From: Candidatus Micrarchaeota archaeon
Lineage (GTDB): Archaea > Micrarchaeota > Micrarchaeia > Anstonellales > Anstonellaceae
Assembly: GCA_026413805.1 (NCBI GenBank)
Contig: JAOAKE010000003.1
Span: 1-53,023 of the forward strand
Reading direction: 5' to 3'
Length of the DNA stretch: 53,023 nucleotides
In this document: one piece after another, positions 1,970 through 53,023 of the stretch
Layout: each line of letters starts with the position of its first letter
How positions within the stretch are numbered: the first letter of the stretch is position 1
Program-made: the position numbers and the translations under genes
The notes under the pieces: generated by a model
What the model saw: only the letters and a program-made list of their open reading frames with translations
The model's database searches: none
What the model was told of the DNA's origin: nothing

Positions 1970-2126
1970 CGCTCCGACCGGGAATGCCAGCTTGCTGGCG
2001 CAGGAGCCAGCGAAAGCCTTTGAACCCGGGTTACCGGCTTTCTTTTCTTAAGGTCCCTGCCAACAAATTTGCAAGGGCGTGTGGAATGAAAGGCCGGCGT
2101 CCTTGACCGGGCTAGACTATCGGAGC
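1970..2126 (-). tRNA. tRNA-Glu(UUC) with two introns (anticodon loop 37/38 and T loop)
   Basis: Read on the minus strand. Acceptor GCTCCGA (2126-2120) pairs with TCGGAGC (1977-1971). D arm GTCT/GGAC. Anticodon stem CCGGC (2097-2093) pairs with GCCGG (2038-2034). Loop CTTTCA..A with anticodon TTC at 2090-2088. T stem CCGGG (2029-2025) pairs with CCCGG (1982-1978). The gene is 157 nt versus about 75 nt mature. The 47 nt intron 2086-2040 forms a canonical bulge-helix-bulge (CTTT:AAAG central helix). A ~35 nt insert splits TTCAAA..T. Confidence 0.9.
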
Positions 2127-4241: not shown

Positions 4242-4249
4242 CTTTAAAC
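4242..4249 (+). promoter_or_regulatory. TATA-box-like element upstream of the tRNA at 4270
   Basis: CTTTAAAC is centred about 25 nt upstream of the tRNA 5' end. Confidence 0.4.
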
Positions 4250-4269: not shown

Positions 4270-4447
4270 GGGCCCGTAGCTCAGCTGGTTAGAGCGGCAT
4301 CCTCTAAATGCATTTTGCATTTGGATGGACGCATGTCTTATATGACACGCTCTCGCAAAGTGTCTTGGACAGCTGTAGGTCACGAGTTCTCAAGCAAGGC
4401 GCGTTTGCCTTCTGCCCCTGCTTGGCTTAAGAATCTCGTCGGGCCCA
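4270..4447 (+). tRNA. tRNA gene with three putative introns; apparent anticodon CUA, isotype unresolved
   Basis: Acceptor GGGCCCG (4270-76) pairs with CGGGCCC (4440-46), with A73 at 4447. D arm is GCTC-AGCTGGTTA-GAGC. T stem ACGAG (4382-86) pairs with CTCGT (4435-39). The T loop is split TTC | 41 nt | GAAT with a good bulge-helix-bulge. The anticodon arm starts GCATC + CTCTAAA (4297-4308). The gene is 178 nt versus 74 nt mature. Confidence 0.8.
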
Positions 4448-4505
4448 TTTTCTGTTCCGAGCGGAGAACCGCAGCTTTTTTATTGAAGAAAACCAAATCA
4501 GCACC

Positions 4506-4817
4506 ATGGCAGCAAAAAAGCGAAAGCAAGGTGGAATCCAGGAATTAATCCGCGAGAGGATTGACATACTCCTTTCCATGGCTTGCCGCGCATTGAAAGA
4601 GGGAAAAGAGGTCCATGCCCGCCGTTATGTGTTTTTGGCGCGCAAGCTTTCAACGCGCTTTAACTGCCGCTTAAGCCCAAGACAAAAAGCCCTATTTTGC
4701 AAAAAATGCGGCGTGCCGCTGGTGGCTGGGTTGAATGCTTCGGTGCGCCTGAAAAAAAGGAGGCGAAGCGCAGAATACCGCTGCTCTTGCGGAGCATCAC
4801 GTTATTTTAAATATTAA
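4506..4817 (+). CDS. rnp4: RNase P protein component 4 (Rpp21/Rpr2 family)
   Basis: 103 aa basic protein. N-terminal helical region ..RERIDILLSMA..ARRYV.LARKLS.. and a zinc ribbon, CKKCG..(x)..CSCG. Confidence 0.85.
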   Translation: MAAKKRKQGGIQELIRERIDILLSMACRALKEGKEVHARRYVFLARKLSTRFNCRLSPRQKALFCKKCGVPLVAGLNASVRLKKRRRSAEYRCSCGASRYFKY

Positions 4818-15274: not shown

Positions 15275-15919
15275 ATGCAGAGTGAATCTGTGAGGGACAG
15301 GCACCTGCTTTATCCTTTGTTTCTCCTTGCAGCAGCCTTCTTTTTTTTCCCACCTAAAAATATTGAATTGAGCCTCCTTTATCATGGGCTTGCCTTCCTT
15401 TTCCTCTCGCTTTTTCTCTCATCGCAAGGAAAAGGCATGGCGCATGCCTTGGGATACCTCCGCCTAGCCCCTGAAAAGCGCAAGCTTCCCTTTCTTGTGC
15501 TTGCAGGCATTCTCACAGCTGCATTTTCATTCGCCCTCTCCTTTTTGTTTTCTGCCTTTTTGCAGTCATTTGGCATAAATGACGCATCAGCAGTACAAGA
15601 TAAAATCAAGCACCTCTCCTTTTTCGGCGTGGTCTTGGCATTTACGCTGGCTCCGCTTGGCGAGGAGGCCTTTTTCAGGGGCTATCTGCTGAGGAAGTTG
15701 GCTGACAAGACAGGCTCTTTTTTCCTCGGGGCCATTTTGTCCTCCATGCTATTTGGCGCTGTGCATTTTGCCTATGGCTCAGTGGCTGAGATTGCAGTGG
15801 CATTTGCAATAGGCATTTTTCTCTGCCTTGCCACCCGCCTTTTTAACTCCCTTGTCCCTGCCATAGTGGCGCATTCTATTTTTAACTTGGCCTCGCTATT
15901 ATTGATGCTATATTTATGA
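15275..15919 (+). CDS. CPBP family intramembrane metalloprotease (CAAX/Abi-like)
   Basis: Multi-pass membrane protein with the motifs ..PLGEEAFFRGYL.., ..MLFGAVHF.. and ..VAHSIFN... Confidence 0.8.
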   Translation: MQSESVRDRHLLYPLFLLAAAFFFFPPKNIELSLLYHGLAFLFLSLFLSSQGKGMAHALGYLRLAPEKRKLPFLVLAGILTAAFSFALSFLFSAFLQSFGINDASAVQDKIKHLSFFGVVLAFTLAPLGEEAFFRGYLLRKLADKTGSFFLGAILSSMLFGAVHFAYGSVAEIAVAFAIGIFLCLATRLFNSLVPAIVAHSIFNLASLLLMLYL

Positions 15920-16896
15920 TATCGCTTGGTATAGAAAGCACTGCCCACACAATAGGCGTGGGAATTGTAGATTCAGGCAGGGTAATTGCCAATGCAAAAA
16001 GGGTGTATTCCCCGCCAAAAGGGGAAGGGATAGTGCCGCGAAAGGCAGCCGACCACCACGCTGAAAACTTTTCAGCTGTCCTTGCAGAGTCTCTCAGGGA
16101 GGCAGGATTGGGTTTGGGCGACATAGACCTGTTTTCCTTCTCCCAAGGGCCCGGAATTGGCCAGTGCCTTCGTGTATCCTGCGCAGCTGCAAAGTTCCTG
16201 GCTTTGAAATACCAAAAGCCCATTCTCGGGGTGAACCACTGCCACGCCCACTTGGAAATTTCACGTGGGCTTCTTGGCATGAAAAGCCCGCTTTACATCT
16301 ATGTTAGCGGGGCAAATACCCAGCTTATTGTGGAGGGAGATAAAGCGGCAAAAAAGGGGGCACGCTTTTTGGTCCTTGGCGAAACGCTGGACATAGGGCT
16401 TGGAAACTTATTTGATGTATTTGCAAGGGAGGCAGGCATTTCGCCTGCGCACGGAAGCGAGGTGGAGAGGCTTGCAAAAAGAGGCAGTTTCTTCCAGCTT
16501 CCCTACACAGTCAAGGGAATGAACTTTGCCTTTGCCGGGTTGCTCACAGCGGCATTAAAGGAGGCGGAGGCAAGGCCAATAGAAGACGTTTGCCTCTCCC
16601 TCATGGAAGTTTCTTTTGCCGAAGTCTGCGAAGCAGCTGAGAGGGCGTTATGCCTTACTCAAAAAAAGGAGGTAGTGCTGTGCGGGGGAGTTGCGCAAAA
16701 TTCCAGGCTTTGCCAAATGCTTCTCCAAGTGTGCAAGGGGCACGGGGCAAGGTTTGGGACAGCGCCTCCAGATTTGAATGCAGACAATGGCGCAATGATA
16801 GCCTACACTGCCCTTTCAGAGTGGAAGAAGGGAAAGAGGGCATCTATCGGCAGCCTCAGGCCAAATGGCTACTGGCGGATTGATGAGGTAGAATAA
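15916..16896 (+). CDS. kae1: tRNA N6-adenosine threonylcarbamoyltransferase Kae1
   Basis: MISLGIESTAHTIGVGIV.....ANAK.VY.P..GEGI.PRKAADHH......VL.E.L......DID.FSFSQGPG.G.CLRV..VNHC.AH is the Kae1/TsaD pattern. ATGA overlap with the upstream gene. Confidence 0.9.
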   Translation: MISLGIESTAHTIGVGIVDSGRVIANAKRVYSPPKGEGIVPRKAADHHAENFSAVLAESLREAGLGLGDIDLFSFSQGPGIGQCLRVSCAAAKFLALKYQKPILGVNHCHAHLEISRGLLGMKSPLYIYVSGANTQLIVEGDKAAKKGARFLVLGETLDIGLGNLFDVFAREAGISPAHGSEVERLAKRGSFFQLPYTVKGMNFAFAGLLTAALKEAEARPIEDVCLSLMEVSFAEVCEAAERALCLTQKKEVVLCGGVAQNSRLCQMLLQVCKGHGARFGTAPPDLNADNGAMIAYTALSEWKKGKRASIGSLRPNGYWRIDEVE

Positions 16897-38351: not shown

Positions 38352-39218
38352 TCATACCTCCAGCTTCAGCCCGTCTTCTGCAACAGCAGTATCTTTGAAA
38401 ACAGCCCGCGCCTCTTCAAGAAGGCCCAAAGGGCTTTTGTACCTTCCTGAAATATGCGTCAGCACCAGCCTTTTTGCCTTTGCCTTTTTTGCAACCTGGG
38501 CAGCCTGCCTTGCAGTTGAATGCCAGGACTCTTCAGCCTCTTCCTTTTTGTCCTCGCCAAAGGTTGCCTCGTGTATTAGCAGGTCCGCCCCTTTTGCAGC
38601 CAGCACCGTATTTTCACATGGCAGGGTGTCACCAGTGTAGCAGATTTTTTTCCCCTTTTGGACATAGGTGATTTCTTCAAGCTTTACAACGCGCCCGCCC
38701 ACCTTGAGGCTCCCTTTTTTTGCAATCTCTGAGAACATCGGACCTTTTATCCCGAGCTTCTTTGCCTTGTCTTCATAAAATCTTCGCTTTTCCTTTTCTT
38801 CAAGGCAATAGCCAAGAGAAAGCCCTTCGTGCTTGGTTTTAAACGAAGAGACGGCAAACTCCCCAAAATCGCATGAGAAATTTTCGTCAATCTCATGCAC
38901 TTGCACAAAATTTCCTCCCTTGCCAATTACTGCCCGAGTTCCCTTTGGCCCATAGATTGAAAGGATTTCCTGCCTGCCATTCAGCCTCATGGTTTCCATA
39001 AGCCCAAAAACTCCGAGAAAGTGGTCCAAGTGGAGATGCGAGATGAAGATTGCGCGGACCTTCATGAAGGACAGGCCAAAGCGCATCATCTGCCGCTGGG
39101 TGCCTTCTGCACAGTCAAGCAGGTAGATCTCACCCTCGCGCCTGACTGCAATTGCCGAAAGGTTGCGCTCCAGCGTGGGGACGGCTGCCGAGGTCCCAAG
39201 AAAGGTTATTTCAAACAT
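38352..39218 (-). CDS. rnz: ribonuclease Z
   Basis: MFEITFLGTSAAVPT.ERN.SAIAV...GEIYLLDCAEGTQRQM......., ..IFISHLHLDHFLG.. and a C-terminal ..LTHIS.RY. Confidence 0.9.
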   Translation of the reverse strand: MFEITFLGTSAAVPTLERNLSAIAVRREGEIYLLDCAEGTQRQMMRFGLSFMKVRAIFISHLHLDHFLGVFGLMETMRLNGRQEILSIYGPKGTRAVIGKGGNFVQVHEIDENFSCDFGEFAVSSFKTKHEGLSLGYCLEEKEKRRFYEDKAKKLGIKGPMFSEIAKKGSLKVGGRVVKLEEITYVQKGKKICYTGDTLPCENTVLAAKGADLLIHEATFGEDKKEEAEESWHSTARQAAQVAKKAKAKRLVLTHISGRYKSPLGLLEEARAVFKDTAVAEDGLKLEV

Positions 39219-47480: not shown

Positions 47481-48014
47481 TCAAGCACCTTCAACAGGCA
47501 CCTTCTTTTCCTTTTTCGGCCTTGGCTCTTTTTGGGGCTTCTTTTCCTTCTTTGGCTTTTCTGCAGCCTTCTCTTTTTTCTCTTCGGGCTTTTCCTGAGG
47601 CTGAGCCTGGGCCTGTTTGCCTTCAGCCTCCTTTTTCTCCTCTTTCTTGGGGAAGAATTTAGCGAGCTTTTCAGCTATTCCCTTTACAAGCTCGGCTGCA
47701 TTGCCTGGCTTTTCAATTGCCACGGCAGCAGAAGGCACAGACAGGCCTGCTGCAGCCCCAAGCTCTTTCTTGGTTGGAACATAGCAGTATGGGACATTTT
47801 TTTCCTCGCAGATGATGGGAAGGTGCATTACCACCTCTTCCGGGTCAACATCCTCGGCAATCACCACCAGCGCAGCATTTCCTCCTTCAATTGCCTTGGT
47901 GGTTTCATTTGCCCCCTTTCTAACCCTGCCTGTGTCAGCAGCCACAGTGATTGCCTCAAGCGCCTTTGCCTGGACATCCTTTGGCGTTTCAAATTTGACA
48001 TATGACTTTGCCAT
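47481..48014 (-). CDS. rpl7ae: 50S ribosomal protein L7Ae with a ~55 aa Lys/Glu/Pro-rich C-terminal extension
   Basis: [12 protein letters not shown]....[51 protein letters not shown] is L7Ae. The tail is [49 protein letters not shown]. Confidence 0.9.
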
Positions 48015-51770: not shown

Positions 51771-52159
51771 CCCAACCCTGCTAATAAAGAGCCGCACGGA
51801 AATCGCAAGCACGAAGCCGTGCAAAATCGCCTGATCTGGGCGACATCAGCGCCGGGCGCTTGCCTGGATGCGATGGATGCGCAAAACACACAACCCCTAT
51901 TACCTTCCACCGAAGATGCCCCTGCGCTTTTCGGGATGAAGGAAGACCAAGAAGGTCGCTATTTCTCCGGGTTGGAAATGCCATGCTCATAAGTTCATTA
52001 TGAGGCACGTCCCCCTTTTTGGGGGAGTGCGGCCCTTCCAAGATGCTGGAGGGCCAACTTGCGCGCGGATGGTGAAGGCAGCGGATTTGTGAAGCTGCCT
52101 GAGTTTGCACGCATTTCACGAGTATGAAGAGAGCGACTGATACTCACAAGAGTTCCAAG

Positions 52160-53004
52160 GCATATGCATGTTACGCCATTCAGTGGATGGCTTGGCTCAA
52201 GTAGCCAGGGCCCCGCGGCAAGCAGCGAAATTCTCCGGGTAGGTGCAGGCAAGATGCGATTACCAGTTTTTAAGGCGGTAATCGCATCCTTCAAACCTTT
52301 GATCCGGAGGTAGGGCGGCGCATCGCAAGATGCAAATACCCCGAGAATTAAAACATTCTAGTAACGGGAGGAAAAGAAACCAACTGGGATTCGGTTAGTA
52401 AGGGTGACTGAAAGCCGAGCAGAGCGCACCGAATGCAGCGCAGCAATGCGCTGCAGATGTGGGGCGGAGCATCCGCTTCTTGAGGCGAGGTCGGCTGGAA
52501 AGCCGCGCCATAGAGGGTGAAAGCCCCGTAGTTTAAGGGAGGCGGAGCGAAGCTGCAAGAGTAGTGCTCCTTGAGTATGGGGCATGAATATGGGGGGACT
52601 AACCTCCAACTCTAAATATAACTTGAGACCGATAGCGAATTAGTAACGCGAGTGAAAGCTGAAAAGGAGCCCGAAAGGGCAGTGAAAAGAGCCTCAAACT
52701 GAATGGTCACAGCTTGATGCAGCGCAAAAGGGCACGACCTGCAAAGCAAGCGCGCGAGAGCGCGCAAGCCAGCAGGGCATACCAGCGTTGCATCGTTCTT
52801 CTCGAAGCAAGAGCCAGGGAGTTGATGCTGCGTGGCGAGGCGAGAGCCGAAGCGAAAGCGAGTGTGCGCACCGAAAGGGAGGCACGTCGTGCGAAAGCGC
52901 GACCAGTCACGCTCATCAGACCTGAAGCCGATGTGAACTAAGCGAGCGCAGGGCGAAGCCAGCCTGACGGCTGGTGGAGGCCCGCAACCGGTGCTAGTAT
53001 ATTC
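52160..53004 (+). rRNA. 23S (LSU) rRNA, 5' ~850 nt only; the 5' end is approximate and the gene is truncated by the contig end
   Basis: Conserved LSU 5'-domain strings: ..CAGTGGATGGCTTGGCTC.., ..GGGAGGAAAAGAAACCAACTGGGATTCGGTTAGTAA.., ..GAGACCGATAGCGAATTAGTAACGCGAGTGAAAGCTGAAAAG.., ..GACCTGAAGCCGATGTGAACTAAGC.., ..GGTGGAGGCCCGCAACCGGT... Confidence 0.9.
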
Positions 53005-53023
53005 CTGTCTCTTATACACATCT
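53005..53023. other. Nextera/Tn5 mosaic-end adapter sequence (not biological)
   Basis: The last 19 nt are exactly CTGTCTCTTATACACATCT. The reverse translation gives the familiar MYKRQ artefact ORF. Confidence 0.95.

Follow-up and report, generated by a model that had tools for sequence, protein, structure and literature searches.

Which anticodon does a tRNA gene carry from which 104 of 178 nucleotides have to be spliced out? This question is raised by positions 4270-4447 (forward strand) of a 53,023-nt stretch of DNA from a Candidatus Micrarchaeota archaeon of the family Anstonellaceae (assembly GCA_026413805.1, contig JAOAKE010000003.1), the whole of which is termed the window below. The outline of a tRNA can be read directly from the sequence: the acceptor (GGGCCCG/CGGGCCC), D (GCTC/GAGC) and T (ACGAG/CTCGT) stems are perfect, and the discriminator base is A73. 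A preliminary description of the locus had recognized these stems, the three-intron structure and the surplus of about 104 nt, which we recover as 35+28+41 nt, and had concluded that CUA, an amber anticodon, was the only one that could be built. The evidence assembled here indicates instead, with high confidence, that the locus is a functional archaeal tRNA-Ile gene with anticodon UAU, which would decode AUA and harbours three bulge-helix-bulge (BHB) introns at positions 29/30, 37/38 and 56/57.

Standard tools are blind to this gene. ARAGORN, which the preliminary description had proposed as a check, finds no tRNA anywhere in the window at default settings and still none with introns allowed, and a scan of the window with Rfam yields no tRNA match, neither at the gathering threshold nor at E<=10. 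When the ARAGORN score threshold is lowered to 80%, a spurious tRNA-Gln(ttg) with wrong boundaries appears, which was rejected. Other means were therefore required to find the exon structure. To avoid any choice by eye, all pairs of introns of at least 10 nt each were enumerated within 4297-4381 and kept if they left a 5-bp anticodon stem and a variable loop of 4 or 5 nt, with a pyrimidine in position 32, U in 33 and a purine in 37. This procedure returns 55 distinct acceptable anticodon arms, and hence it is incorrect that no arm but GCATC with the loop CTCTAAA is possible and that no anticodon but CUA can be built. The top splice-motif score, 17, belongs to GCAGT-CTTATAA-GCTGT with the anticodon TAT, while arms with CGC, CTA or CGG reach 12 at most.

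The same solution emerges from a scan of the region for BHB motifs, defined as a 4-bp helix followed by a 3-nt bulge on each strand, with cleavage behind the second base of the bulge: once three candidate introns are taken out, a perfect tRNA remains. The gene is accordingly divided as follows:

4270-4299, forward strand: exon 1, tRNA positions 1-29 (acceptor 5' strand, D arm, G26 and G27-C28-A29)
4300-4334, forward strand: intron 1, 35 nt, between positions 29/30
4335-4342, forward strand: exon 2, GTCTTATA, positions 30-37 (U33 at 4338, anticodon TAT at 4339-4341, A37 at 4342)
4343-4370, forward strand: intron 2, TGACACGCTCTCGCAAAGTGTCTTGGAC, 28 nt, at the canonical position 37/38
4371-4389, forward strand: exon 3, positions 38-56 (A38, anticodon-stem 3' strand GCTGT, variable loop AGGTC, T-stem 5' strand ACGAG and TTC)
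4390-4430, forward strand: intron 3, 41 nt, in the T loop at position 56/57
4431-4447, forward strand: exon 4, positions 57-73 (GAAT, CTCGT, CGGGCCC and the discriminator A73)

The joined exons form the 74-mer GGGCCCGTAGCTCAGCTGGTTAGAGCGGCAGTCTTATAAGCTGTAGGTCACGAGTTCGAATCTCGTCGGGCCCA, which ARAGORN folds into a canonical cloverleaf and calls tRNA-Ile(tat). All of its stem positions are standard pairs, two of them G-U, and the anticodon arm GCAGU-CUUAUAA-GCUGU combines a 5-bp stem with a 7-nt loop that contains U33 and A37. CCA is not encoded; the base that follows A73 is T. The preliminary description had also listed, as one of three options, an anticodon created by splicing that it could not reconstruct, and this option is the one that the evidence bears out; TAT lies at 4339-4341. 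The anticodon, A73, A37 and A38 are compatible with tRNA-Ile, and the spliced tRNA would presumably be charged with isoleucine; the label "Ile" given by ARAGORN derives from the anticodon.

Each of the three introns can adopt a BHB motif at the predicted boundaries. Intron 1 has the central helix GCGG:ACGC (3/4 pairs), the bulges CA|T and AT|G, an outer helix AGA:TCT of 3 bp and an inner helix CC:GG of 2 bp. The perfect hairpin AAATGCA-TTT-TGCATTT, which had been noted in the first insert, does exist (4306-4322), and its place is the interior of this intron. Intron 2, with a motif of the classical kind, has the central helix CTTA:TTGG (3/4), the bulges TA|T and AC|A and a 5-bp inner helix, GACAC:GTGTC, and its outer helix is the anticodon stem itself, which comprises 2 bp in the precursor and rises to 5 bp once intron 1 is gone. 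For intron 3 the earlier boundaries proved exact: the T loop is split as TTC, insert 4390-4430, GAAT, with the central helix GAGT:GCTT (4/4) and the bulges TC|T and AA|G. The inner helix CAAGC(A):(T)GCTTG measures 6 bp, and the motif is a relaxed one that has no outer helix.

The decisive support comes from relatives. A search with the neighbouring protein S19e, restricted to one genome per species, yielded 16 loci, the closest 13 of which (74-84% identity) are Candidatus Micrarchaeota or Anstonellaceae genome bins. An orthologous tRNA lies upstream of S19e in 11 of these relatives (L002-L012), and as the tRNA played no part in their retrieval, they represent an unbiased sample; a look for distant tRNA-Ile(UAU) genes next to S19e in L001 and L013-L016 yielded none. 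All 11 share the same four exons, apart from one D-loop change in L005, and in all 11 the introns follow GGCA (29/30) and GTCTTATA (37/38). Scanning metagenomes for exon 2 joined to the start of intron 2 added 48 loci, and the overall sample from genomes and metagenomes has 49 complete copies, which represent 41 distinct genes.

The mature sequence agrees with that of the window in 44 of the 49 copies, and the five variants all retain pairing: one copy has C for U in the D loop, two have C at position 43, so that G27-U43 becomes G27-C43, one has G instead of A49, paired as G49-U65, and in one the T stem has gone from ACGAG:CTCGT to GGGAG:CTCCC. Exon by exon, identity extends to 48/49 copies for exon 1, 45/49 for exon 3 and 48/49 for exon 4. 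The base that follows exon 1 can be T, A, G or C, and this variability marks the start of intron 1. The intron itself is represented by 39 distinct orthologous sequences of 21-39 nt, which are unrelated and have little in common beyond the 3' end [A/T/G]CGC-A-N. What persists across the orthologues is the central helix GCGG:[A/T/G]CGC with its bulged A. In 30 of the 39 sequences the inner helix lies right against the splice bulges, compared to a mean of 6.6 and a maximum of 14 when the interiors are shuffled, and the first and last bases of the intron vary freely. The boundaries of sequence conservation thus coincide with the cuts that the motifs predict, and the same correspondence holds for the motif-predicted junctions of the gene in general. 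As for the T loop, GTTCGAATC is uninterrupted in 20 of the 49 copies, which proves the junction TTC|GAAT.

Independent calls and covariation point the same way. Single-intron homologues of tRNA-Ile(UAU) occur in more distant, AT-rich lineages, where only the canonical intron is present. ARAGORN unaided returns tRNA-Ile(tat) for seven loci (L018, L024, L034, L040, L047, L049 and L050), and the intron reported in L024, L049 and L050 begins at the same junction with the same first 11 nt as intron 2. Among nine distinct spliced sequences, all 189 of 189 stem cells are standard pairs, 8 of the 21 pairs have changed on both sides, and the anticodon loop is invariant (9/9). None of 500 shuffles reaches the observed values, and sliding the partners by 1-3 columns lowers pairing to 25-49%. 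This alignment was built with the favoured exon model and is to that extent dependent on it; four of the nine sequences are backed by an independent ARAGORN call of tRNA-Ile(tat). At the level of sequence comparison, the exon-intron structure, the conservation of the exons and the covariation of the stems are demonstrated by these data.

Several points weigh against the three-intron tRNA-Ile(UAU). The pattern used for the metagenome retrieval covers exon 2 and the start of intron 2, and those 19 bases are not independent evidence in the loci obtained in this way. The central helices of introns 1 and 2 each contain one mismatch (G-A and U-U, respectively), the former being perfect in relatives with TCGC. 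When the precursor is folded without constraints, the minimum free energy structure (-72.1 kcal/mol, z = -4.3) retains the acceptor stem, and the BHB motifs do not appear in it. Since it fails to reproduce the splice motifs, this fold is no guide to the exon structure; in it, AGAGCG of the D arm is paired to CGCUCU in the loop of intron 2, which makes alternative conformers of the precursor plausible. Finally, a Pfam scan of about 60 open reading frames (ORFs) in the window did not find EndA, RtcB or TiaS.

Two other interpretations of the locus, both of them options in the preliminary description, would turn it into something other than an ordinary decoder. The gene could specify an amber-suppressor tRNA with the loop CTCTAAA, in which CUA at 4304-4306 would read UAG and GCATC would be closed by GATGG or GACGC. 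Indeed, GCATC directly follows G26, the loop after it offers U33 and A37, and arms with CTA do figure among those listed by the enumeration. Yet, these models score 12 at most against 17 for TAT and require introns without credible BHB motifs. The segment in question falls within the non-conserved intron 1, which differs entirely among the 39 orthologous sequences, CTCTAAA being found in a single one, that of the window; the exon boundaries marked by conservation exclude it. No CUA was found in a conserved and properly closed arm, as a suppressor or a tRNA-Pyl-like molecule would have it, and TAG is an ordinary stop codon: of 34 Pfam-supported genes, 7 end in it, among them L31e and aIF6, which match their Pfam models and have their normal length. 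The suppressor reading is refuted, and such a tRNA is extremely improbable. If the gene were instead decaying, and its inserts junk that cannot be removed, the failure of ARAGORN and Rfam to recognize it, the mismatches in two central helices and the missing outer helix of the T-loop intron would find a ready explanation. However, the exons are identical in the 44 copies from many genomes and samples, although intron 1 has fully diverged, which implies strong purifying selection on the exons. Neither broken stems nor free exon substitutions were found, the rare changes keep pairing, and the splice motifs are conserved, as is a TATA-like box in most of the relatives. Moreover, AUA is the most used isoleucine codon and needs a decoder, and comparable relaxed motifs are cut by the epsilon2 endonuclease of Micrarchaeum (PMC3239211). 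Decay is likewise refuted, and we consider it very improbable.

A third alternative accepts the exon model and assigns a role of its own to the canonical intron, either by pairing with the D arm or through an intron-dependent modification of the UAU anticodon, such that the gene would be more than passively interrupted. Intron 2 begins with 11 nt, TGACACGCTCT, that do not vary between the window and any of the 11 relatives of the unbiased sample, while in the same genes the interior of intron 1 is scrambled without any conservation. The 5' strand is fixed even where its helix partner differs (L008 and L010), and the CGCTCT within it is the exact complement of AGAGCG at 4291-4296 (base 21, the 3' strand of the D stem and G26), a pairing that the minimum free energy fold uses. 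The same 11-mer also opens the single intron, of 16-33 nt, in distant tRNA-Ile(UAU) genes with quite different tRNA bodies (L018, L024, L049 and L050); these cases were, however, retrieved by that very 11-mer and are biased accordingly. Furthermore, the D-arm strand is invariant and permits no covariation test, in minimal introns of 16 nt the 11-mer merely spans the bulge base and the inner hairpin of the splice motif, and the canonical intron of a tRNA-Glu gene in the same window is not conserved among the same relatives. On balance we regard an independent function of the intron as unlikely. In the more general form, that in DPANN tRNA-Ile(UAU) the canonical intron is functionally required and has an invariant 5' element, UGACACGCUCU, complementary to AGAGCG of the D arm, the idea likewise stands only a small chance of being right. 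If true, the intron might serve a modification of the UAU anticodon that depends on it, as known from eukaryotes, or the control of precursor folding and splicing order. Irrespective of the cause, one intron is scrambled and the other frozen in the same gene.

For the interrupted tRNA-Ile(UAU), a plausible processing pathway can be outlined. A 178-nt precursor would be transcribed from a TATA-box promoter, and its ends would be trimmed by RNase P and tRNase Z. EndA would then cut at six sites, after the second base of each 3-nt bulge, and an RtcB-type ligase would join the four exons, with CCA being added. The mismatched central helices of introns 1 and 2 and the missing outer helix of the T-loop intron call for an endonuclease of the broad-specificity type, which might resemble Micrarchaeum's epsilon2 enzyme. 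Bases 4337-4338 are needed by the outer helix of intron 1 (AGA:TCT) as well as by the central helix of intron 2 (CTTA), and owing to this overlap the two motifs cannot form fully at the same time. The removal of intron 1, in turn, completes the anticodon stem, which serves as the outer helix for intron 2. Overlap and stem completion together suggest sequential splicing, and the introns probably are removed one after another, intron 1 before intron 2.

The flanks of the gene carry candidate signals for its expression, which, with the purifying selection on the exons, lend indirect support to transcription and splicing in vivo:

4243-4248, forward strand: TATA-like box TTTAAA, a putative promoter element, 21 nt upstream of the mature 5' end
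4448-4451, forward strand: T run directly after the gene, a putative oligo-T terminator, with a further T6 at 4478-4483

A T/A-rich, TATA-like box is found about 20-30 nt upstream in 10 of the 11 relatives L002-L012 (L009 is less clear), in the form of TTTAAA in seven and of TATAAA, TTTTAA or TTTATA in others, and in most relatives T-rich sequence is located within 10-25 nt of the 3' end. The window is archaeal: Rpp21, S19e, a PDCD5-like DNA-binding protein, L31e and aIF6 adjoin the tRNA, and an archaeal large-subunit (LSU) rRNA begins at 52159. For Rpp21, no exact-protein match is on record. The window also holds a set of RNA-processing genes (4506-4817, 15916-16896, 38352-39218 on the reverse strand and 47481-48014 on the reverse strand), namely Rpp21, a subunit of RNase P, directly downstream of the tRNA, Kae1/TsaD, a tRNase Z-like metallo-beta-lactamase and L7Ae. 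Among these, Kae1/TsaD acts in the synthesis of t6A37, which is of relevance to an ANN-reading tRNA with A37. The LSU rRNA gene begins in the stretch 52159-53023, and there is no small-subunit rRNA gene in the 52 kb upstream; the rRNA genes appear to be unlinked, at least on this side.

The codon usage of the window fits a dedicated AUA decoder. AUA is the commonest isoleucine codon (265 of 591 in the 34 Pfam-supported genes), and a decoder for it is consequently needed. Neither tRNA-Ile(CAU) nor TiaS is present in the 53-kb window. All three ARMAN lineages are reported to possess tRNA-Ile(UAU) and to have neither tRNA-Ile(CAU) nor TiaS (PMC3239211), and just 2 of 167 surveyed archaeal genomes, those of Korarchaeum and Nanoarchaeum, were reported to encode tRNA-Ile(UAU) (PMC6000648). 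The gene supports the view that Micrarchaeota decode AUA by means of a UAU tRNA rather than via agmatidine. As to the genetic code, the TAG triplets pointed out earlier at 7304-06, 7977-79 and 15266-68 are present; TAG, which also ends 16 of 65 long ORFs, behaves as a stop within the window, and no use as a sense codon was observed. A false lead is thereby removed: there is neither an amber suppressor to account for nor a sign of stop-codon reassignment in this genome.

The 41 orthologues provide a clear picture of intron turnover, in which the introns at 29/30 and 37/38 are fixed, and those in the T loop are gained and lost at several positions. Copies with an interrupted T loop contain unrelated inserts of about 37-122 nt, of which those of the window, L003 and L007 are at 56/57 and that of L011 is at 58/59; for L008 a standard BHB motif did not suffice to place the T-loop intron. 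Across the copies intron 2 ranges from 28 to 131 nt. Nested growth is seen in L019, L023, L025, L038, L041, L044, L055, L061 and others, where the longer intron equals the shorter one with hairpins inserted inside. Two separate T-loop introns in one gene would make four in all, which is above the documented maximum of three. In L008 (5283-5539) and L010 (2743-2984), along with their duplicates L037 and L036, a second copy of the tRNA's last 12 nt, TCGTCGGGCCCA, occurs 70-85 nt downstream of the gene, and the sequence between the two is rich in hairpins. This arrangement looks like the scar of an element integrated at the 3' end of a tRNA gene; no such repeat of the tRNA 3' end is found in the window.

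A second disrupted tRNA gene of the window, the tRNA-Glu(UUC) at 1970-2126 (reverse strand, 157 nt), is likewise missed by ARAGORN and Rfam. It has a canonical intron of 47 nt (2040-2086) with a strict BHB motif (central helix CTTT:AAAG, outer helix of 6 bp) and a T-loop intron of 35 nt at 59/60 (1984-2018), and ARAGORN identifies the spliced 75-mer as tRNA-Glu(ttc). In relatives, the gene occupies the syntenic place with different introns or none. The presence of a second multi-intron tRNA in the window suggests that disrupted tRNA genes are a habit of this genome. An element common to the canonical intron of the tRNA-Glu and intron 2 of the tRNA-Ile (ACACGC..CT.GCAAA) was considered and rejected, as the tRNA-Glu introns of the relatives are unrelated in sequence; the resemblance is probably due to chance.

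Both tRNA genes identified in the 53-kb window, Ile and Glu, are thus invisible to ARAGORN and the Rfam tRNA model. When ARAGORN does assign an anticodon to the two-intron orthologues (L002-L012 and L017-L064), its one-intron calls include Arg gcg, Leu aag, Ser gga, Val cac, Cys gca, Ala ggc and His gtg. These anticodons are mutually inconsistent and were rejected as artefacts of imposing one intron on genes that have two and carry the anticodon UAU. Wrong but confident-looking anticodons are a hazard for automated tRNA censuses of DPANN genomes, and since the tools miss multi-intron tRNAs of these archaea, a census may wrongly suggest missing decoders or odd codes.

How does the gene compare with known systems? 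Eukaryotic tRNA-Ile(UAU), as far as is known, always contains an intron, and in yeast the pseudouridylation of positions 34 and 36 depends on it. The gene described here shares with its eukaryotic counterparts the anticodon and a canonical intron, which is obligatory in eukaryotes and here includes a strongly conserved segment, but its splicing would involve recognition of a BHB motif and not measurement from the mature domain. Within the Archaea, Korarchaeum cryptofilum and Nanoarchaeum equitans also possess a UAU isoleucine tRNA, and the Korarchaeum copy likewise has an intron; yet, these genes are described with a single intron or none, and the lineages are unrelated (PMC6000648).

Archaeal tRNA genes have been documented with one up to a maximum of three introns (PMC3239211, PMC4090602). 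The tRNA genes of Crenarchaeota, in particular Thermoproteales, as far as they are described in later accounts of the original work (Sugahara et al. 2007, 2008, via PMC4090602 and PMC3239211), resemble the window gene in that canonical as well as non-canonical positions hold BHB introns, up to three per gene, that motifs are relaxed and that introns are quickly gained and lost between relatives. Judged by the same accounts, the present case differs in that the host belongs to the DPANN Micrarchaeota, the endonuclease presumably is other than the (alpha-beta)2 type, and the isoacceptor is rare in Archaea.

The closest parallel is ARMAN-2 (Candidatus Micrarchaeum acidiphilum), whose pre-tRNA-Ile(UAU) contains a 25-nt intron at 37/38. 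In vitro, the organism's own epsilon2 EndA cuts this intron, and the enzyme cleaves strict as well as relaxed motifs (Fujishima et al. 2011, PMC3239211). The two genes have the phylum, the UAU isoacceptor and a BHB intron at 37/38 in common, and the ARMAN-2 genome is similarly rich in disrupted tRNA genes (56% of the total; PMC3239211), T-loop introns included. In contrast to the single intron described for ARMAN-2, the gene in the window has three, of 35, 28 and 41 nt, which include those at 29/30 and 56/57; the two are compared here by description only. No account of this particular gene turned up in literature searches. The kind of gene is already known, both as a Micrarchaeota tRNA-Ile(UAU) and as a three-intron archaeal tRNA, and what the window adds is a more heavily interrupted copy in the Anstonellaceae branch.

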